A stretch of DNA of 64,000 bases from Nitrosopumilus sp. (lineage in GTDB: Archaea > Thermoproteota > Nitrososphaeria > Nitrososphaerales > Nitrosopumilaceae): the NCBI GenBank assembly GCA_965249555.1, contig OZ252243.1, forward strand, positions 736,001-800,000. The letters are read 5' to 3'. The position numbers and the translations under genes were made by a program. The notes beneath the pieces were generated by a model. The model saw only the letters and a list, made by a program, of their open reading frames with translations. It did not search any database and had not been told where the DNA came from. Numbering within the stretch: position 1 is the stretch's first letter; the number at the start of each line of letters is the position of its first letter. Shown here one piece after another: positions 8,041 through 40,521 of the stretch.

Positions 8041-9588
8041 TCACAGATTGATGTTTCCGTGTTTTCTGGGTAGTTGTTTCTCTCTCTTGTTTTCAAGCAT
8101 CTCTAGTGCTTTGATTAGCATGGGTCTTGTTTCGGCAGGATCAATTACATTATCAACTGTTCCATGAGATGCTGCAACGTAAGGATTTTCAAATTTTTCT
8201 GCAAATTCATCAATTAGCTCTTTTTTAAGAGACTCGGGGTCTTCAGATTTTGCAAGTTCCTTTCTATACATGATTTTTACGGCTGCCTCTCCACCCAAAA
8301 CAGCACATCTTGCAGTAGGCCATGCATAGTTGATGTCAGTTCTAAGATTCTTACTTCCCATTGCAATGTATGCGCCGCCATATGCTTTGCCAATGACTAG
8401 GGTGATTCTTGGAACAGTAGCTTCACAGAATGCATAGAGCAGTTTACTTCCATGTCTAATTATTCCATTGTGTTCTTGATTGGAGCCAGGCATGTAACCG
8501 GGAGTGTCAACCAGAGTGACAAGAGGTATGTTAAATGAATCACAGAACCTAATGAAACGTGCTGCCTTGTTTGATGAATCAATATCAAGCGCACCAGCAA
8601 GGTGCATAGGATTGTTTGCAACAAATCCAACAACTCTGCCATTCATTCGTCCATAGCCAACCACAATATTTGGTGCAAACAATTCATGCACTTCAAAGAA
8701 TTCATGATTGTCAACTATAGAGTTGATGATATCCTTCATGTCATAGGGTTGCAGGGGATTTTCCGGAATTATATTGATCAGATTGTGATCTAATCTATTT
8801 GGATCATCATCAGTTGCAGTTTTAGGTGGCTCTTCAGTATTATTTTGCGGAAGATATGAGAGTAATTTTTTGACGTAATCCATGCACTCGTATTCATTTT
8901 CTGCAACAAAATGTGCAACCCCACTCTTTGCACCATGGGTAATTGCACCGCCAAGGTCTTCAAATGAAATTTCTTCGCCCAATACAGTCTTGACCACATC
9001 AGGTCCTGTGACAAACATGGTTCCTATCTTGTCAACCATAATTACAAAGTCAGTCATTGCTGGAGAGTATACGGCACCGCCAGCAGAAGGGCCAATGCTT
9101 GCGGTAATTTGTGGAATTACTCCAGAAGCTAATTGATTGTAATAGAAGATATCTGCAAATCCATCAAGACTCATTATTCCCTCTTGGATTCTGGCACCGC
9201 CAGAATCCATTATTCCAATAATTGGGCATCCGGTTTTGAGTGCATGCTCTGTAAGTTTTGTAATTTTTTGAGCTCCCATCCTACTCAGTGTTCCACCAAG
9301 TACAGTAAAGTCATAAGCAAAGACAAAGATCTGTCTGCCATTTGCTGTCCCATATCCACAAACTACGCCATCTGTAAAGAATTTCTTCTTCTGCATGTCA
9401 TATTCATGATAGTGGTGCGTGGTTAACGGATCAATCTCAGTAAAGGTACCCTCATCAAGCAAAAGATTGATTCTTTCACGGGCAGTTAGTTTTCCCTTAT
9501 CATGTTGAGCCTTGATTCTATCCTGGCCCCCTCCCTGTAATGCCGTGTTATTCTTTTTAGTATATTCTTCAATCTTTTCAGAATGCAT
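8041..9588 (-). CDS. pccB: Carboxyltransferase subunit of acetyl/propionyl-CoA carboxylase (3HP/4HB cycle)
   Basis: GKLTARERI, DSGGARIQEG, KAYGGAY, KHGNINL. Confidence 0.95.
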   Translation of the reverse strand: MHSEKIEEYTKKNNTALQGGGQDRIKAQHDKGKLTARERINLLLDEGTFTEIDPLTTHHYHEYDMQKKKFFTDGVVCGYGTANGRQIFVFAYDFTVLGGTLSRMGAQKITKLTEHALKTGCPIIGIMDSGGARIQEGIMSLDGFADIFYYNQLASGVIPQITASIGPSAGGAVYSPAMTDFVIMVDKIGTMFVTGPDVVKTVLGEEISFEDLGGAITHGAKSGVAHFVAENEYECMDYVKKLLSYLPQNNTEEPPKTATDDDPNRLDHNLINIIPENPLQPYDMKDIINSIVDNHEFFEVHELFAPNIVVGYGRMNGRVVGFVANNPMHLAGALDIDSSNKAARFIRFCDSFNIPLVTLVDTPGYMPGSNQEHNGIIRHGSKLLYAFCEATVPRITLVIGKAYGGAYIAMGSKNLRTDINYAWPTARCAVLGGEAAVKIMYRKELAKSEDPESLKKELIDEFAEKFENPYVAASHGTVDNVIDPAETRPMLIKALEMLENKREKQLPRKHGNINL

Positions 9589-33734: not shown

Positions 33735-35861
33735 TTATCTAACCTTTCGTAATTCAGACTTTATGTTATCTGCAAGGGTTGAACCAATTTTATCTATTTC
33801 TGCTAATTTATTCACCGGAATCTTTGCCAAATCATCTAGACTCTTAATTCCGCGTTTGTAGAGAGTTCTGGCTCTAACCCTTCCAATTCCTTTGATTTTG
33901 ACTAGTTCAAGTAACTCCTCCCTAATTCCATAAACGATTCTTTCTCTTAGGTTACCGAGTTCCTCAAGCAAATCTGCCCTCTCCACATGCTTGGAAATCT
34001 CCCTGAGGCAATATGAGAGCCAATTTGCAGTCTCAGTCATCCTATGCATGTCCCCTGACTCTATTCCAAGGTTATCAGACAGGGATAACTCTGAAGATTC
34101 GCTAACCCATGCATGCAAGGCCAAAAGGCTTCTTGAGCAATCATACTCTGAAACTGGTTCAAGCAGTTCTGAAGAATTGTTTTCTATCAAGAGACTGGCA
34201 GATTCATAATCCTTTTGTCGAAGTGAAAATTTAGGGAAAAATTCTTCACAGTTTGAGATCAAATGCAGGAATCCAAACGTATGTCTTCTTTCTTGGGATA
34301 CGTTTTCAATAGCATCTCTAAAGTATGTTGCAGTCAGAGGATCAATGTACAGCATCGATGCCTCTTTTCCAAATTCAGTAGCTGCATATCTTTCACCTTT
34401 TTTGACTATCAGACATTCGCCGGACAAAAAACGCAGCGAAATATCAATTGCAAATTTTATTGTGGGCTTTCTTGATTGCAATCCTCCCAATGTTTGCAAG
34501 AAAAATTCCAAGATCTCAGCTTTTTTGATTCCAGGATGTGTAACTATAACGCTAAGTATGTGAGTACGTAGAGATTTGTCATCAGTGATCTTTGAAACTA
34601 TCGGTTCTGGTTCCCCGTTAACGTAATAGTCAATCAGGTCTTCAGCATTTCCATTTCCAACAATTATTGCTTCCCCATAGTCATCATATTGCGGTCTTCC
34701 AGCTCTGCCACAGAGTTGTTTGTATTCCAAGACACTAATGGGTCTGTTTGCCCCAACTTTTGCATTGTATCTATTGACACTTGAAATTACAACTCTTCTT
34801 GCCGGAAGGTTAACTCCTGCGGCTAAAGTTGGCGTGGATGAGAGTAGCTTGATAGTTCCCTTACGAAATTCTGTTTCTATTGTTGCCCTGCAATTCTGAT
34901 TCAGCCCCGCATGATGAAATGCAACCCCTTTTTTTACAAGAAATGCCAATGTCTTTATTAGTTCTGTATGTTCGTTTCCAGCTAGAATTTTTTTTGAGGT
35001 TTTTTCTAGTTCCCTCAAATCTTTTTTTTCCAAAATCTGAGAGATGGCATCTGCTGCTTTTGTTGCAAGGGATTTCGAACGGTTTCTGGTCGCTGCAAAT
35101 ACCAGGGATTGGCCGCCTTCTTTTACTGACTGTACGCCTAAATCAATCGGAGTTCCACATATGCTACGCTCGACTGAAAAGGTCTTGCCGTCATTCATGG
35201 TAACTTTGCCTGCATCACATACCCCTTCTGTTAGTGGCACAGGTCTCCAGTCGTTTTGCACTAGCTTGCAATCAAGCCAGTCTGCAATCTCATCAGAGTT
35301 TGAAATAGTGGCACTAAGACCTACAATCTGAGGTCTTGTCTCCAATAATTTTAGATGTGTAAGAATCATCTCAAGTGTCGGGCCACGATTTTCATCTCCA
35401 ATCAAATGGACCTCATCAGTAATTACTAGTCCAATTTCTTCAACCCATTCAGCACCATGTCTAATAATTGAATCCATTTTTTCATTTGTTAAAATTAACA
35501 CATTGCTTTTCTCCAAATGCTTTTCAATATTCTCATAGTCTCCAGTAGATATGCTGACTCTGACTTTATTTCCCAGTGCAACTTTTTCTAATTTTTTAAA
35601 TTCTGAGAATTTTTCAGCAGCTAACGCACGTAAAGGGCTAAGATAGATCACCTTGCCGTTATTCTTTGAAAGATAGCTAATCATTGCAAGTATTGCAATC
35701 AAGGTCTTTCCACTTGCAGTAGGAGCAGATACCAGAACGCTCTTCCCATCTAATAGTCCAGACTTTACACTATCAGCTTGTGGCGGATATAATTTTTCAA
35801 AACCTTGTGATTTTAAAAATTCAATTGCAGAATCGGGAAGATCTAGTTTCTCTATTTTCAT
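33735..35861 (-). CDS. hel308: Hel308/Ski2-like DNA helicase
   Basis: APTASGKT, DEVH, HHAGL, GRAGRP, C-terminal HhH. Confidence 0.93.
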   Translation of the reverse strand: MKIEKLDLPDSAIEFLKSQGFEKLYPPQADSVKSGLLDGKSVLVSAPTASGKTLIAILAMISYLSKNNGKVIYLSPLRALAAEKFSEFKKLEKVALGNKVRVSISTGDYENIEKHLEKSNVLILTNEKMDSIIRHGAEWVEEIGLVITDEVHLIGDENRGPTLEMILTHLKLLETRPQIVGLSATISNSDEIADWLDCKLVQNDWRPVPLTEGVCDAGKVTMNDGKTFSVERSICGTPIDLGVQSVKEGGQSLVFAATRNRSKSLATKAADAISQILEKKDLRELEKTSKKILAGNEHTELIKTLAFLVKKGVAFHHAGLNQNCRATIETEFRKGTIKLLSSTPTLAAGVNLPARRVVISSVNRYNAKVGANRPISVLEYKQLCGRAGRPQYDDYGEAIIVGNGNAEDLIDYYVNGEPEPIVSKITDDKSLRTHILSVIVTHPGIKKAEILEFFLQTLGGLQSRKPTIKFAIDISLRFLSGECLIVKKGERYAATEFGKEASMLYIDPLTATYFRDAIENVSQERRHTFGFLHLISNCEEFFPKFSLRQKDYESASLLIENNSSELLEPVSEYDCSRSLLALHAWVSESSELSLSDNLGIESGDMHRMTETANWLSYCLREISKHVERADLLEELGNLRERIVYGIREELLELVKIKGIGRVRARTLYKRGIKSLDDLAKIPVNKLAEIDKIGSTLADNIKSELRKVR

Positions 35862-37945
35862 ACTCGGTTATAGTGACCGGGTCTTGATTCATAAATAGAT
35901 GCTTCTCTAAGCATTCGTCTGATATAGTCTCTTGCCTCGTCTTCAGTGAATTTTTCACTCTTTTCTAGTTCTTTGACAAATATCTTTTCTTCTACTGGCA
36001 CCTTGTTATCACCCTCAAGGCTTCTGAGAATATCCATGAATAATTGCATCTTTGAGACCTCACTTCTTGGCTTTCCTTGCAATACTCCAAGATCTACCTT
36101 TCCAGTATTGACATCTACCCCTGCATCCTCAAGCATATTCTGAAGCAAGAAGATTGCCCGTTCAGCATCTTCTAGTTCTACCTCGTTTTTCAAGAGTAAT
36201 CTTGCTCTTGCAGTAGAGAGTCTGATAATTCCCTCTAGTTGTCTTGGCGTAACTGTAATCATCTCTTCGGATTCTACATTTCTCATCTGTAGGTAATATT
36301 CGAGGATCTTTTCCTCAGCATCTTTGGTCATTTTAGGGGTACCACGTTTTGCATATGAGAGATATTTTGTCAGTAAATCAACATCAATTACAGAACGTTT
36401 GTCTATTCCTTGCGGAGTGTGCAGTTCTATAATGTGTCTGGCAATCTTTTCGTCTTTTTCCTTACTTGGAATATCCCTTACGACAAAAATCAAGTCAAAT
36501 CTTGTAAGCAATGGGATTGGCAAGTTTACATTTTCTGTAATATTTTTGAATGGATCATATTTCCCATACATTGGGTTTGCAGCAGCTAAAATTGATGTTC
36601 TAGCATTTAGTGTAGCTACAATACCGCCTTTTGCAATACTGGCTGACTGTTGTTCCATAACTTCGTGTAAGGCACTTCTATCTTCTGGTTTCATCTTGTC
36701 AAATTCGTCTATACATACAAGGCCTTGGTCACCAAGTACTACTGCACCTGCTTCAAGCATCATGATTCCAGTCTTGTCTTTAACTATAGCAGCTGTAAGT
36801 CCTGCAGCAGTTGAACCTCTGCCAGAAGTATACAGACCTCGTGGTGCAATTCTTGTACAAAACTTTAGCATCTCACTTTTTGCAGTACCGGGATCTCCAA
36901 CCAGAAATATGTTAATGTCCCCCCTAATCTTGCTTCCATCACCTAATATTTTCTGATTAGCACCAACGATAAGCAACATAATGGCTTCTTTGATTACTGA
37001 ATGTCCTTGAATGTGAGGAGCAAATGAATCAACTAGCTTTTGATATACATCAGGACTTTTACTTAACGCTTTGATCATTTCTTCTTCTTCAGGTGAAACT
37101 TCGTCTTTGGCTATCTTACGAGACATTTTAGAACCATGCCCACCCAAGAATTCAATGTTATTTCCTTCAATCCTTAATCGGTATAATCCACTATGGCCTC
37201 TCTGGACACCTGCAACTGATTCCTGCTCGATTCTGACTATACCTGTAAGAATAATTCTGTCTCCCGGCCTTGCATTGTCTACTAAATCCTGCCTAATTGT
37301 GACGTCAATATAGTGAGGAAGTTGTCCTGGAGGCAAGTCCTCAGGAAGTTCCTGTAATCTAAGAAGTTGAAAATCAATAAACTTGCTTGCTTCGGGTTTT
37401 ATCTCAAAATCCCTGTGTTTACAAGACGGGTTGTCACATACTACAGGAATTTTAACATCCATTCCTTTAAGCTGAATTACCTTGGTAGGGTGATCATCAG
37501 GACAGACAAAGACTAGTTCCTTTGCAAGAGGTTTTACTTCTGATGCCCTAACTACCATTCCTGAAACGCTTGTAATTGTTCCAATGGTTTCAGCATTGAT
37601 TTGTCTGAGACTTCGCTGAAGTGGAAAGTTAATCAGTCTTACACGAACTTCATCTTTTATTTTTTCAGCATAATCCGGAAATCTTGTTTGCAATGCTTCT
37701 TTGATTGCTCTAGAAAACGCATCAAAGACTCTGTCAGGACTTGCAGTGAATAATACCTCAATTTCTGGCTCTACAACCAAATCATTGTAATCAACTACAA
37801 TGTATTTCGCGTTTTTAGGCATCATCTCATCGATTGCCTCTACATAGATGTAGTTACCAGATTTATTTTTGAATCTAATAAGAAATTCTTTTACTCTATC
37901 TGACAATGCAGATTCTGTAAATGTACTAGTTTGAGTCTTGCTCAT
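35858..37945 (-). CDS. mcm: MCM replicative helicase (no intein)
   Basis: GDPGTAKS, IDEFDKM, SILAAANP, LLTRFD. Confidence 0.97.
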   Translation of the reverse strand: MSKTQTSTFTESALSDRVKEFLIRFKNKSGNYIYVEAIDEMMPKNAKYIVVDYNDLVVEPEIEVLFTASPDRVFDAFSRAIKEALQTRFPDYAEKIKDEVRVRLINFPLQRSLRQINAETIGTITSVSGMVVRASEVKPLAKELVFVCPDDHPTKVIQLKGMDVKIPVVCDNPSCKHRDFEIKPEASKFIDFQLLRLQELPEDLPPGQLPHYIDVTIRQDLVDNARPGDRIILTGIVRIEQESVAGVQRGHSGLYRLRIEGNNIEFLGGHGSKMSRKIAKDEVSPEEEEMIKALSKSPDVYQKLVDSFAPHIQGHSVIKEAIMLLIVGANQKILGDGSKIRGDINIFLVGDPGTAKSEMLKFCTRIAPRGLYTSGRGSTAAGLTAAIVKDKTGIMMLEAGAVVLGDQGLVCIDEFDKMKPEDRSALHEVMEQQSASIAKGGIVATLNARTSILAAANPMYGKYDPFKNITENVNLPIPLLTRFDLIFVVRDIPSKEKDEKIARHIIELHTPQGIDKRSVIDVDLLTKYLSYAKRGTPKMTKDAEEKILEYYLQMRNVESEEMITVTPRQLEGIIRLSTARARLLLKNEVELEDAERAIFLLQNMLEDAGVDVNTGKVDLGVLQGKPRSEVSKMQLFMDILRSLEGDNKVPVEEKIFVKELEKSEKFTEDEARDYIRRMLREASIYESRPGHYNRV

Positions 37946-38456
37946 TTAGATCTCCTCTTATTTGTTTTTCAAACTCTATGCTGTTTTCATGGATGGTTTT
38001 ATAGAAGACACTTTCTTCAACAGTTAATTTGTTATAGAGTTCAGAATTTAGTTTGATAGTGTCTGCTATCTTTACTAGTTTACCTCTTCGCATCCTAAAT
38101 AATTCCAACATCATGCTTTCAACTTTATCAAAATCATTGCGATTCAATTCTTTCATAGTTTCTTTTAGTTTGATGTAAAAGTGGGAGTCTAGTGTAGAGA
38201 TTTGATATTCTCCAACCATCTTTTCTTTTGATAATGCTTGTTTTAATTCAGTAATCATATCTGGAGAATCAAGTGTTGCCAGTTTATTATCAGCCAATAT
38301 TTTTCCAATCCACTGAGGCATGTTAATTACCTCACCTGAAGTTCCTTCGGTCTTTATTCCTGCAACATTGAATTTGAAATCACGATTAACTGAGACTTTG
38401 GTATCCTTTAGGCGGTATCCAACTGAATGCACTTTTTCTATCTTGTCTATTTCCAT
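37926..38456 (-). CDS. GINS complex subunit (Gins23-like)
   Basis: PQWIG...LDSHFY...RRGKL...LTVEE; overlaps the mcm start. Confidence 0.85.
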   Translation of the reverse strand: MEIDKIEKVHSVGYRLKDTKVSVNRDFKFNVAGIKTEGTSGEVINMPQWIGKILADNKLATLDSPDMITELKQALSKEKMVGEYQISTLDSHFYIKLKETMKELNRNDFDKVESMMLELFRMRRGKLVKIADTIKLNSELYNKLTVEESVFYKTIHENSIEFEKQIRGDLNEQDSN

Positions 38457-38461
38457 GGTGA

Positions 38462-38559
38462 GATCTTGATCCTCCTAGGGATCCTTCAAGAATCGGATCG
38501 ATCAATTGATCTGATCAAACAGCTCAATAGAATTGATCCGAGCGATCTCAAGGCTGATC
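38462..38559. promoter_or_regulatory. Cluster of 10 GATC sites between divergent GINS-MCM-Hel308 and rfcS
   Basis: GATC starting at 38462, 38468, 38480, 38496, 38500, 38508, 38513, 38535, 38544, 38556; regulatory role inferred. Confidence 0.7.
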
Positions 38560-38650
38560 GCATAGAAAATACAACTAATTTGGATTTTAATTTGCTGTAT
38601 GTCACAATAACCAATTCGGATTTATTAATGGGAATTGAACCTAGAATTTT

Positions 38651-39601
38651 ATGTCTGCAACAGGTATGTGGGTAGAAAAATATCGACCGACAAAACTTTC
38701 AGAAATTGTAAACCAGACGGAAATTATTGGTAGCCTAGAAGCTCTAATCAAAGATCCAACAGACATGCCTCACTTGCTGTTTTCTGGCTCTGCAGGAGTA
38801 GGCAAGACCACTACTGCATTATGTCTTTCAAGACAAATTTTGGGGGAGTATGTCAAAGACTATACTCTTGAATTAAACGCATCAGACGAGCGAGGAATTG
38901 ATATGGTTAGAGAAAAGGTAAAAAAGTTTTCAAGATTTGCCGGAATGGTTGATGTTCCGTTCAAGATTATCATTTTAGATGAAGCAGATGAAATGACTTC
39001 AGCTGCCCAAACTGCACTTAGAAGAATTATAGAAGACGCTGCAAAAATTTGCAGATTCATTCTAATTGCAAACAATGTTTCAAAAATAATAGATCCCATT
39101 CAAAGCAGATGTGCAGCCTTCAAGTTCACAGCAGTTTCAGAAGAGGATGTCATGGGTAGACTAGAAGAGATTGCCAAAAAAGAAAAAGTACAGACTGACA
39201 AAAATGGTCTAAAGGAAATTTATGAGTACACAGAAGGGGATTTGAGACATGCAATTAATCTAATGCAGGCAACTGCAAGTCTTGGTGGAATCACTCAAGA
39301 GAATGTAAAGGCATCAGCCGGACTGACAAAGACCAGTGATGTCGATGAGGTTCTGAAAATGGCACTATCCGGAAAAGTTGCTGAAGCAAGAGAGAAGATG
39401 ATAGAATTAATCAAGGTTTATGGAATGTCAGAATCTGACTTTTTAAAATATTTCAATTCAGCTGTTTTCAAATCAAAGCATGACAAACTATCAGATATTT
39501 TGCAAGTGATTGCAAAGTATGATTACAGAATACTAGTTGGGGCAAATTCTGAAATTCAGTTATCTGCAATGCTTGCAGAACTTGCAAAATTAGAAAACTG
39601 A
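38651..39601 (+). CDS. rfcS: Replication factor C small subunit
   Basis: WVEKYRP, GVGKTT, ELNASDERG, LDEAD, QSRC. Confidence 0.96.
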   Translation: MSATGMWVEKYRPTKLSEIVNQTEIIGSLEALIKDPTDMPHLLFSGSAGVGKTTTALCLSRQILGEYVKDYTLELNASDERGIDMVREKVKKFSRFAGMVDVPFKIIILDEADEMTSAAQTALRRIIEDAAKICRFILIANNVSKIIDPIQSRCAAFKFTAVSEEDVMGRLEEIAKKEKVQTDKNGLKEIYEYTEGDLRHAINLMQATASLGGITQENVKASAGLTKTSDVDEVLKMALSGKVAEAREKMIELIKVYGMSESDFLKYFNSAVFKSKHDKLSDILQVIAKYDYRILVGANSEIQLSAMLAELAKLEN

Positions 39602-39609
39602 TTCAAATT

Positions 39610-40521
39610 TTAAGGATCTAGAGATTTTAGATTTTTACATCTGTTTCTGATTGTGACTTCAGTTACACCTGCAGCCATGGCAATTGTTTTTTGGGTCGTA
39701 TTCTCGCCAGTCTCCATACTTGCAATATACAGGGCAGATGCCGCCATTCCCATCGGATCTTTTCCAGATATGATTTGACTCTGTTCAGCCTTTTTGAGAA
39801 GCTTCATTGCATGACGTTTAGTTTTTTCTGACAGGCCAATCTGACTTGCAATTCTTGAAATACACTGAACTGAGTCAACCACAGGCATCTTCAAGTCTAA
39901 TTCTTTTACTATCATTCTGTAACAAATAGCGAGATTTTTTCTCGTGATGTTAATTGAACCTGAAACGTCATTAAGAGTTCGCGGAGTACTAGTTTCACGG
40001 CAAGCAGCATAAAGTGTTGCAGCAATTAATGCATTAATTGATCTGCCTCTGACAAGTTTTTTTTCCAGAGCTTTTCTGTAAATGTAAGCTGCTTTTTCCA
40101 CGATAGCATCAGACAAAGATAATTTCTCTTTCATTTTGAGAAGTTCACTCAGTGCATGCTGGAGATTTCTATCAGCAGAATCCTTTGTACGACTTCGACT
40201 ATCCCAGATACGTAATCGCTTGATTGAGGATTTCATGGATGATGATAATGGGTTTCCAGAAGAGTCTTTGTTTATTGGGCTAATTATTGTACTTAGACCT
40301 TGATCATGTCTTGTTAGTGATGTTCTGTCTCCGGTTCTTGATTTGTTAGCACCGCTATCTGAGAATGTTCTTTCTGGTCCTTGACTGTCCACCCTATCAG
40401 TAATTACAAAGCCACATGTGCCACAAAACATTTCGCCTGTTTCATCATCAGTGATTATTCTGGTTTTGCCACATCTTGGACAGTTTTGCTTTTTTGATAG
40501 TTGCTGGTTTTGTTGTGCCAC
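39610..40521 (-). CDS. tfb: Transcription initiation factor TFB
   Basis: Zn ribbon CPRC/CGTC, cyclin repeats, GVTEVTIRNR. Confidence 0.95.
   Translation of the reverse strand: MAQQNQQLSKKQNCPRCGKTRIITDDETGEMFCGTCGFVITDRVDSQGPERTFSDSGANKSRTGDRTSLTRHDQGLSTIISPINKDSSGNPLSSSMKSSIKRLRIWDSRSRTKDSADRNLQHALSELLKMKEKLSLSDAIVEKAAYIYRKALEKKLVRGRSINALIAATLYAACRETSTPRTLNDVSGSINITRKNLAICYRMIVKELDLKMPVVDSVQCISRIASQIGLSEKTKRHAMKLLKKAEQSQIISGKDPMGMAASALYIASMETGENTTQKTIAMAAGVTEVTIRNRCKNLKSLDP

Follow-up and report, generated by a model that had tools for sequence, protein, structure and literature searches.

A conserved GATC array in the promoter region of the GINS-MCM-Hel308 operon of Nitrosopumilus sp. and related ammonia-oxidising archaea

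A dense array of GATC sites marks the genome of Nitrosopumilus sp. (genome G000, a single contig of 2,230,439 bp, 34.4% G+C, 99.97% complete) directly upstream of GINS, the first gene of a GINS-MCM-Hel308 operon. The array resides in a stretch of 64,000 nucleotides (positions 736,001-800,000 of the genome), hereafter the window, at genome position 774,462; coordinates given below are those of the window unless marked as genome positions. Judged from sequence comparisons, the array is a promoter-proximal module of the operon, in register with the GINS start codon. It is established that this is a deeply conserved, promoter-embedded GATC array, found at one place in most genomes of a clade in which an orphan Dam methylase is a core gene.

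The GATC array and its conservation

The array, its parts, and the other promoter elements of the same spacer are listed here.

38462..38559, minus strand (GINS sense): GATC array of 10 sites, directly upstream of the GINS start codon; unique, non-random and conserved.
38462..38483, minus strand: three proximal GATC sites, at -6, -12 and -24, between the core and the ATG.
38496..38503, minus strand: core GATCGATC, conserved better than any other block; in 18 genera it precedes the GINS start by 34-51 nt.
38500..38511, no strand: 12-bp palindrome GATCAATTGATC, fused to the core in this genome; most relatives have it 22 nt upstream of that block.
38513..38538, minus strand: rewritten centre, with an extra GATC (38513) and the AGCT, ending at the GGATCAATT block (38535).
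38544..38559, minus strand: two distal GATC sites, including the GCGATCAGCC block conserved in genomes with long spacers.
38579..38590, minus strand: conserved A/T-rich block of the TTAAAATC type, a candidate upstream TATA box of a second GINS promoter in genomes with long spacers.
38621..38628, plus strand: TATA box TTTATTAA of RFC-S, with its centre at -26.5 from the RFC-S ATG, the geometry of a leaderless gene, in the conserved block TAACCAATTCGGATTTATTAATGGG.

GATC sites start at 38462, 38468, 38480, 38496, 38500, 38508, 38513, 38535, 38544 and 38556, 10 in 98 bp, and a single AGCT is found among them at 38521-38524. The GINS ATG is at 38454-38456 (minus strand), and the nearest GATC begins 6 bp away. 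The spacer separating GINS from the divergent gene of the RFC small subunit (RFC-S) measures 194 bp (38457-38650). The array fills its GINS-proximal half; the RFC-S-proximal 91 bp contain no GATC, and the next site is at 38753. These counts and distances, including the GATC-free remainder of the spacer, had been given in a preliminary description made from the sequence alone, and are confirmed by site listing, as its gene names GINS, MCM, Hel308 and RFC-S are by Pfam.

The whole genome contains 6864 GATC sites (3.08 per kb). The array is the densest 100-bp window (10 sites), the runner-up has 7 sites and the third 5. At least 4 GATC per 100 bp were counted in 34 windows of the genome, and the array is the sole non-coding one exceeding 4. 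When 6864 sites were placed at random, the genome maximum was 4-7 in 2000/2000 trials; the Poisson expectation for a cluster of this kind is 2.5e-7 per genome. Elsewhere in the genome GATC is under-represented, its observed/expected (O/E) ratio of 0.66 (second-order Markov) being the lowest of the 16 palindromic 4-mers, next to GGCC (0.67). No comparable clustering of other rare palindromes was found in G000. The cluster, suspected of being exceptional in the preliminary description, proves to be so: clusters of this type are not common in this genome.

Other GATC-rich windows have a different look. The runner-up (a run of 7 plus 4 sites) is a period-15 tandem repeat inside an open reading frame (ORF), at genome 275819-276014. 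Non-coding windows with 4 GATC per 100 bp, 13 besides the array, do not resemble the module; no replication genes are evident beside them, and the flanking ORFs are unannotated. Two giant ORFs, of 11,290 aa (genome 674714-708586, minus strand) and 5,943 aa (genome 509159-526990, minus strand), each have a non-coding window with 4 GATC shortly downstream of the stop codon.

The array is conserved within the genus. Among loci of the same genus, fetched by the GINS protein (71-100% identity), 30/30 carry 5-10 GATC within 110 nt of GINS on its upstream side, and in the 29 that extend as far as RFC-S the spacer measures 189-199 bp. Genomes assigned to this genus that have 54-63% G+C (L047, genome G018; L048, G002; L049, G031), have a missing or degenerate array; G002 and G018 lack it.

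At the family level, at least 4 GATC are found in 35/45 loci and 20/25 genera. Four core GATC sites are at about +40, +44, +70 and +78 from the GINS start codon and, read in GINS sense, form the composite motif GATCAAWTGATC-N22-GATCGATC. The exact pattern GATCAAWTGATC-N(18-26)-GATCGATC was identified in 145/201 family genomes and 18/25 genera, at a single place in most; the gap measures 22 without exception among the matches listed, though 18-26 was allowed. Reversed as a control, the pattern matched none of these genomes (0/201). Orthologous spacers, to which the preliminary description had pointed as a place to look, therefore do carry the cluster. The family set includes five unpublished genomes (G132, G133, G148, G235, G254); leaving them out, the counts of the core pattern, of the Dam methylase and of the winged-helix protein described below become 140/196, 186/196 and 60/60, and one further family tally 192/196. 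G000 itself is not matched by the exact pattern because its version is rearranged: GATCAAWTGATC occurs once in the 2.23 Mb of the genome, within the palindrome at 38500..38511, and GATCGATC four times.

The core is unchanged where identity of the GINS protein drops to 36-41%. Outside the family, the same place holds 0-1 GATC in 13/13 loci where GINS could be located, all from other families of the order, although the divergent GINS/RFC-S order is kept at several of them; two further loci were dropped, as GINS was not found by tblastn. The composite pattern had no matches in viral contigs.

Sites outside the core are less stable. The GATC at -6 (AGTGATC type) is widely conserved, those at -12 and -24 turn over. 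Alignments within the genus show that L028 and L038 lost one GATC and gained another nearby, and that the rewritten centre of G000 and its closest relative holds more GATC. This version, found only in L015, L016 and L104, takes the place of the TATA-like GT[TGA][AG]A box (TGTTAACA type) of the relatives. The poorly conserved stretch between core and ATG was analysed in one locus per genus, for the 18 genera with an exact GATCGATC located 15-60 nt from the start. GATC is its commonest 4-mer, with 25 copies observed vs 2.3 expected, though these are not 25 independent events, because several genera share homologous positions at -6 and about -25; no shuffle out of 10,000 reaches 25 (maximum 11). 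g28 and g26 retain a recognisable frame of the element, with mutated GATCs. As far as sequences tell, the unit under selection is the tetranucleotide GATC, and not only a fixed word.

Distribution of the array was compared with an MCM tree (27 family genomes and 3 outgroups, quick IQ-TREE; 9/27 inner branches starred, 10 open). Genera with the array are found on both sides of the basal split. Genera lacking it are scattered: g26 is beside g43, g28 near g46, g29 in an open fork, g38 within the starred clade g1/g37/g42/g25/g41/g36, and g33 groups with g23/g39. Since GATC-less genera are scattered among GATC-bearing ones, the array is taken to be ancestral to the family, with repeated losses. A general depletion of GATC was considered as a cause of these losses and rejected: in about 5 kb around MCM the GATC O/E ratio is 1.0-2.8 in g26, g28, g29 and g33, and in g38 0.6-0.8, as also seen in array-bearing genomes, the samples being small.

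Genes flanking the array are the following, all identified by Pfam.

37926..38456, minus strand: GINS (Sld5-domain) gene, first gene downstream of the array.
35858..37945, minus strand: MCM replicative helicase gene, overlapping the GINS stop.
33735..35861, minus strand: Hel308-type helicase gene, overlapping the MCM stop.
38651..39601, plus strand: RFC small subunit gene, divergent neighbour.
39610-40521, minus strand: TFB paralogue, tail-to-tail with RFC-S.

The TFB paralogue was evaluated as a dedicated factor and rejected, being adjacent to RFC-S in only 4/96 loci (L015, L016, L028, L104), that is, in G000 and three close relatives; 3 of those 4 loci carry the rewritten, GATC-richer array. 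An 82-aa ORF that crosses the spacer (38427-38675, plus strand) was rejected as a gene, as it matches no family and, between close relatives, spacer lengths differ by non-multiples of three.

Promoter layout, origin region and a second GATC promoter

TATA-like words in 898 upstream regions of G000 peak at -28 to -25 (197 vs about 30-60 per bin), because of which most genes of this genome look leaderless. The RFC-S box, at -26.5, coincides with the peak. GINS does not look leaderless, and lacks the usual TATA at -28 to -25, because GATC sites occupy the position. Most genera have a TATA-like box, typically TGTTAACA, flanked on either side by a GATC pair, and more GATC toward the start codon. 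Of 32 GINS promoters, all selected by the pattern, 31 have a GT[TGA][AG]A box that starts at offset 10 within the 22-nt spacer. GATC positions are fixed relative to both start codon and TATA-like box in the relatives; G000 has no such box. Because the layout matches that of the second promoter described below, the 22-nt spacer probably holds the TATA-like box of GINS in most genera. The transcription start site (TSS) would then lie about 10 nt after GATCGATC, leaving a leader of roughly 30 nt. Alternatively, the TATA box may be just after the core, with the TSS at the -6 GATC, or, in long-spacer genomes, transcription may start from an upstream promoter.

The array keeps its distance from GINS only. 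Spacer length up to RFC-S is variable (100-579 bp), and RFC-S has its own TATA box. Joint control of the clamp-loader gene, suggested in the preliminary description, is disfavoured by these data, and RFC-S is probably not under control of the array.

In several genera AGCT is found in the 22-nt spacer, at two offsets, as AAAGCTA (g43, g40, g30, g45, g32) or TTAGCT (g24, g39); the observation, made at loci L079, L083, L089, L090, L099 and L106, is unquantified.

The core pattern is present at two or more places in 12 genomes, some of which are metagenome-assembled genomes (MAGs) with two GINS copies. Copies not linked to GINS (6/6 examined, in five genomes) are followed by an ATG-ORF in the same orientation, 57-338 aa in length, which starts 11-40 nt downstream; two also carry the first bases of RFC-S. 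The ORFs belong to no Pfam or PHROG family. Searches of the flanks of the extra copies against Pfam and PHROGs found as the only families one phosphatase and one amoA/dam pair. The latter is in genome G110 (locus L111), where a module copy with a 57-aa ORF is inserted between amoA and dam; the copy is not a dam operator, because its ORF points away from dam.

The origin of replication is elsewhere. The sole Cdc6_C match in G000 is at genome 1,008,916-1,010,118, 234 kb away from the array, and the cumulative GC skew has its maximum (not its minimum) beside it, at about 1.01 Mb. The adjacent intergenic region (genome 1010119-1010608, 490 bp; locus L045, 2665-3154) features two direct and one inverted repeat of the TTTCCAYTC type around an A/T-rich run, as judged by eye, and GTTAAY boxes at a density reached nowhere else in the genome (7 in 300 bp). 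The region resembles a classical archaeal origin. No GATC cluster of at least 4 per 100 bp is found in it. In five other complete genomes of the family GINS is 233, 240, 272, 231 and 313 kb away from cdc6. The skew does not inflect at the array, which lacks an internal A/T-rich unwinding stretch; inverted repeats resembling the origin recognition box (ORB) were not seen by eye, no ORB model being used.

A second promoter of the same layout is found beside the origin.

Genome 1,010,609-1,010,995, plus strand: ORF for a 128-aa winged-helix protein, divergent from cdc6 across the origin; no curated family.

The protein was identified in 61/61 sampled family genomes and in 128/151 genomes of the order. 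Its predicted structure (pLDDT 78) has an N-terminal beta-hairpin and helix, and a C-terminal winged helix. The fold matches generic repressor types (ArsR/BlaI/MecI/Fur type), the best Foldseek E value being 3e-3 and none being <= 0.001; no PDB sequence match was found, and family matches are sub-threshold only. It is a candidate origin-linked regulator. The gene was compared at loci L124-L167 and L203-L210. In G000 the upstream order is GGATC-N-ATTGAAC, TGTTAACA, GATCC, AGATCT, ATG. Conservation of the promoter extends across genera; it has four GTTAAC-type boxes, near -118, -75, -59 and -29, as well as GATC sites. GTTAA starts between -30 and -25 at 30 loci, and GATC between -43 and -38, -20 and -15, and -11 and -6. 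The box is centred at -26.5 from the ATG, the expected TATA place. GATC-to-box and box-to-GATC distances measure 14 and 12 nt at GINS vs 13 and 10 nt at the winged-helix gene. A scan of G000 for the GATC-box-GATC architecture identified only this origin-adjacent gene, and one probable chance match.

Upstream of the winged-helix gene of three f15 genomes of genus g68 (L207-L209), 125 nt contain 4-5 AGCT and 0-1 GATC, at the place of the GATC sites of family f1. AGCT is the other motif reported to be methylated (m4C) in thaumarchaea, and the promoter may have swapped GATC for AGCT. As all three genomes are from a single genus, the pattern is effectively one observation.

GATC sites at the two promoters are not lost together in a consistent manner. 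On the 24 rows with data for both promoters, parsimony takes 6 changes at the GINS array and 4 at the GATC of the second promoter; three rows lacking second-promoter data were omitted. Coevolution of the two was evaluated and is not significant, with counter-examples.

Dam methylase and explanations of the array

amoA is a key gene of ammonia oxidation. In both genomes examined (G000 and G110) it adjoins a gene of the Dam family.

Genome 1,288,425-1,289,282: Dam-family gene; PF02086, 219 bits; TIGR00571 dam, 296.6 bits (cut-off 114.85).

In G000 (region at genome 1287586-1289282; L001, 611-2310) amoA is directly upstream of dam and a MORN-repeat gene downstream, with no nuclease nearby; DpnII/MboI and MutH/Sau3AI families had no match in the genome. 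The genome is rich in methylases (loci L002-L014), with four D12-class matches over the cut-off and N6_N4 family matches at eight places. Dam orthologues (52-90% identity) were identified in 191/201 family genomes and 25/25 genera; the ten genomes without a match are MAGs, 81-97% complete. Across the order, Dam is found in 32/32 genomes of f1, 31/31 of f15 (39-49% identity), 6/32 of f10, 2/7 of f7, and a single genome in each of f11 and f18; ten other families (46 genomes) gave no match.

Methylation of GATC in thaumarchaea, mentioned in the preliminary description, has been published for presumed relatives. In a Ca. Nitrosoarchaeum genome G(m6A)TC was found at 9446/9618 sites (98.2%), with a methyltransferase located outside a restriction-modification system (PMC6329791). 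More than 99% of GATC is methylated in Ca. Nitrosomarinus catalina, as cited in PMC11033074. GATC is methylated in all but two of the archaeal MAGs reported on in PMC8919816, and AGCT is methylated too in both thaumarchaeal ones. Going by amoA and taxonomy, these organisms probably belong to the same family as G000, and homology together with their methylomes suggests that the Dam of G000 is specific for GATC.

We give about an even chance to the explanation that the array is a methylation-sensitive promoter switch on the GINS-MCM-Hel308 (CMG helicase) operon. It would be a cis-regulatory promoter module ancestral to the ammonia-oxidising archaeal family, whose unit, GATC, is the target of Dam. 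The methylation state would set the use of the promoter by TBP/TFB/RNA polymerase or by a putative reader protein. Through most of the cycle both strands of the sites would be methylated; right after passage of the fork, some 230-310 kb past initiation, the sites would be hemimethylated, and transcription of the helicase genes would thereby be coupled to the progress of replication. We infer, in this scheme, the placement of TSS and TATA box, the methylation of the array sites, and the transcriptional effect with its direction. The preliminary description had seen in the cluster a Dam-linked control element for both helicase and clamp-loader genes; the idea of a Dam-linked element at the helicase genes withstood all the checks that the sequences allowed, and the clamp-loader part did not. 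Of the three findings named there as refuting (a cluster missing from orthologous spacers, a genome free of GATC methylation, clusters of this kind throughout the genome), none was made, as far as the available data reach.

A wider version of this explanation is conceivable, but we regard it as doubtful: an independent archaeal epigenetic replication timer of the Dam/CcrM kind, acting on TBP/TFB promoters, with two promoters switched in turn. Orphan Dam would keep GATC methylated, and GATC pairs would bracket a GTTAAC-type box, of the kind repeated at the origin, at both promoters. The winged-helix gene, touching the origin, would be replicated at once, and the CMG helicase operon 230-310 kb later; the fork would turn each promoter hemimethylated in turn, ordering expression in S phase.

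Several observations weigh against a methylation switch. As compared with loci L017-L044, the TATA-like box of the relatives is replaced by two GATC in G000, L016 and L104 (38513-38534), and the promoter placement proposed above cannot explain this replacement. Dam is kept in every genus that lost the array (g38, g28, g29, g26, g33); it is universal in f15 (31/31), and the single f15 genome examined (G050) has no array. Because array-less genera and f15 keep Dam, its presence does not predict the array. Co-loss is partial: GATC at the second promoter are reduced to 0 in 4/7 lineages without the GINS array (g38, with two genomes, g28, g29 and g26) and retained in g33, G086 and G018, the last, a high-G+C genome, keeping 3. 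An independent-pairs test on starred branches gave p = 0.5 (2 pairs the same way, 0 opposite, 1 unchanged). The outgroup genome G039 (f4, L206) has 4 GATC and GTTAAC boxes at the winged-helix promoter, although a search of 7 f4 genomes (E <= 1e-20) returned no Dam orthologue; either f4 has a different GATC methylase, or its GATC sites need none. No homologue of SeqA (PF03925) was found in G000, by a search whose control matched in E. coli, and none of GcrA (PF07750). Finally, bases other than GATC are conserved (AAWT, AATT, flanking G and C), as is the exact 22-nt spacing, which fits a sequence-specific protein equally well.

Such a protein is the basis of the strongest alternative, a methylation-independent operator, to which we assign a lesser but real probability. 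Palindromes (GATCAAWTGATC, GATCGATC, GGATC...GATCC) would bind a dimeric or tetrameric factor that brackets the TATA-like box, repressing or activating, and GATC would merely be part of the recognition word. Blocks are spaced about 32 bp centre to centre, about three helical turns, as computed from the pattern. One site per genome, and a related one at the origin-adjacent winged-helix gene, are typical of a small autoregulated regulon; the 128-aa protein has a confidently predicted C-terminal winged helix (pLDDT 78; Foldseek E 3e-3) and may have a repressor-like fold, and the retention of Dam where the array is lost is in line with an operator. The winged-helix protein is not a specific partner of the array, because it is order-wide (128/151) and present in genera without array. 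A fixed recognition word does not account for GATC being gained at non-homologous positions with unrelated flanks, nor for its being the top 4-mer in an unconserved segment, and G000 swapped its central box for two more GATC, yet kept the array. Switch and operator are not mutually exclusive, as a methylation-sensitive factor satisfies both.

The array could also act in RNA, as part of a 5' leader of about 100 nt in a GINS mRNA started at the TTAAAATC promoter, which would fold or bind a factor, and control translation or stability. GINS has no TATA at the usual -26, an A/T block is conserved upstream in long-spacer genomes, and purine runs resembling GGAGG are found 10-20 nt before the ATG in several genera. 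RNAalifold, however, detects in 32 leaders only GATC:GATC pairs (-3.9 kcal/mol), with 0/8 compensatory changes, pair invariance being by construction because the rows were pattern-chosen. The G000 leader is not unusually stable (z = -1.38; 20/200 shuffles fold equally well), and Rfam gave no meaningful match, the best two hits having an E value of about 5 and a score of 13 bits. Genomes with short spacers have no room for an upstream promoter, and extra copies stand only 11-40 nt from an ATG. An RNA leader is accordingly quite improbable.

GATC clusters mark oriC in E. coli, and the array, located beside replisome genes and at a single place in most genomes, might be taken for a secondary origin, a site of SeqA-like sequestration, or a partition or termination site. 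An origin-associated element had been entertained in the preliminary description too. The features of an origin are found elsewhere: Cdc6_C, ORB-like repeats, the A/T stretch and the skew maximum are all at 1.009-1.011 Mb, 234 kb off, and the distance from cdc6 is 231-313 kb in the five other complete genomes. The array has neither a local skew inflection nor an internal A/T-rich unwinding stretch, is locked to a start codon and duplicated before other ORFs, and the origin region itself has no GATC cluster. We regard a role of this sort as very improbable. That the array is a functionless remnant of a decayed repeat or mobile element has next to no probability: nothing beyond the existence of extra copies speaks for it, and the core is unchanged at 36-41% GINS identity, the chance expectation is 2.5e-7, and no viral contig matches.

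Known systems and significance

GATC clusters at the dnaA promoter and oriC of E. coli are under the control of Dam methylation with SeqA sequestration. As in E. coli, the archaeal array combines dense GATC on a promoter serving a core replication-initiation/helicase function with a conserved stand-alone Dam; background GATC are not otherwise clustered, and hemimethylation after fork passage would by analogy be the timing signal. In contrast to E. coli, the promoter is of the archaeal TBP/TFB type, no SeqA was found in G000, the cluster is away from the origin, and the genes are GINS-MCM-Hel308, rather than an initiator. E. coli clusters are looser, whereas archaeal sites are set in a rigid composite motif with exact 22-nt spacing.

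In Caulobacter, CcrM and GcrA control cell-cycle promoters (ctrA, dnaA, ftsZ) through GANTC methylation. The archaeal Dam resembles CcrM as an orphan, vertically inherited, clade-wide methylase (191/201 genomes in the family). The archaeal promoters would, like those of Caulobacter, have a few methylation sites at fixed positions, and by analogy distance from the origin (230-310 kb in archaea) would set the time of hemimethylation. Motif (GATC), enzyme class (Dam/D12) and domain of life differ, and no GcrA was found in G000. Cell-cycle regulation of the methylase, for which there is no evidence yet in archaea, is not implied by the comparison with CcrM.

DnaA boxes in the dnaA and nrd promoters illustrate how an initiator acts as a transcription factor. 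Similarly, a GTTAAC-type box repeated at the origin recurs in the GINS promoter of most relatives. Any binder of the archaeal box is putative, and the GINS promoter of G000 itself lacks it; the box may simply be a TATA variant, because it sits at the expected TATA place at the winged-helix gene. Promoter-embedded operators of cell-cycle genes are known in another TACK archaeon from aCcr1 and similar small repressors of Sulfolobales (bioRxiv 10.1101/2022.07.28.501860). The protein family of aCcr1 (ribbon-helix-helix), its motif and its lineage are different, and the system is not known to be linked to methylation.

Ammonia-oxidising thaumarchaea are among the most abundant microbes in ocean and soils. 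To our knowledge, archaea have no cyclin or cyclin-dependent kinase homologues, and how their cell cycle is ordered is an open question; we also know of no function assigned to the conserved GATC methylation observed in thaumarchaea. According to the 2024 review 'The Archaeal Cell Cycle' (PMC7617429) it is unclear how progression is controlled, and a term search of this review does not find the word methylation. Likewise, a term search of a 2026 review of prokaryotic epigenetic regulation (PMC13076061) finds no mention of Nitroso- or thaumarchae-. The GATC array element is described neither in passages of these two reviews, nor in the full-text literature searched, a coverage to which subscription papers do not belong.

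The array gives thaumarchaeal GATC methylation a concrete candidate target, the promoter of the replicative helicase genes. It supplies a precise motif, a second promoter of the same layout, portable copies as possible reporters, and lineages which naturally lost the sites. For the timer, the at least five lineages that lost GATC sites and kept the methylase are a natural experiment. If dependence on methylation is true, epigenetic cell-cycle control of the Dam/CcrM type would extend from Bacteria to Archaea; if the timer is true as well, Archaea would have their first known cell-cycle circuit coupled to methylation.

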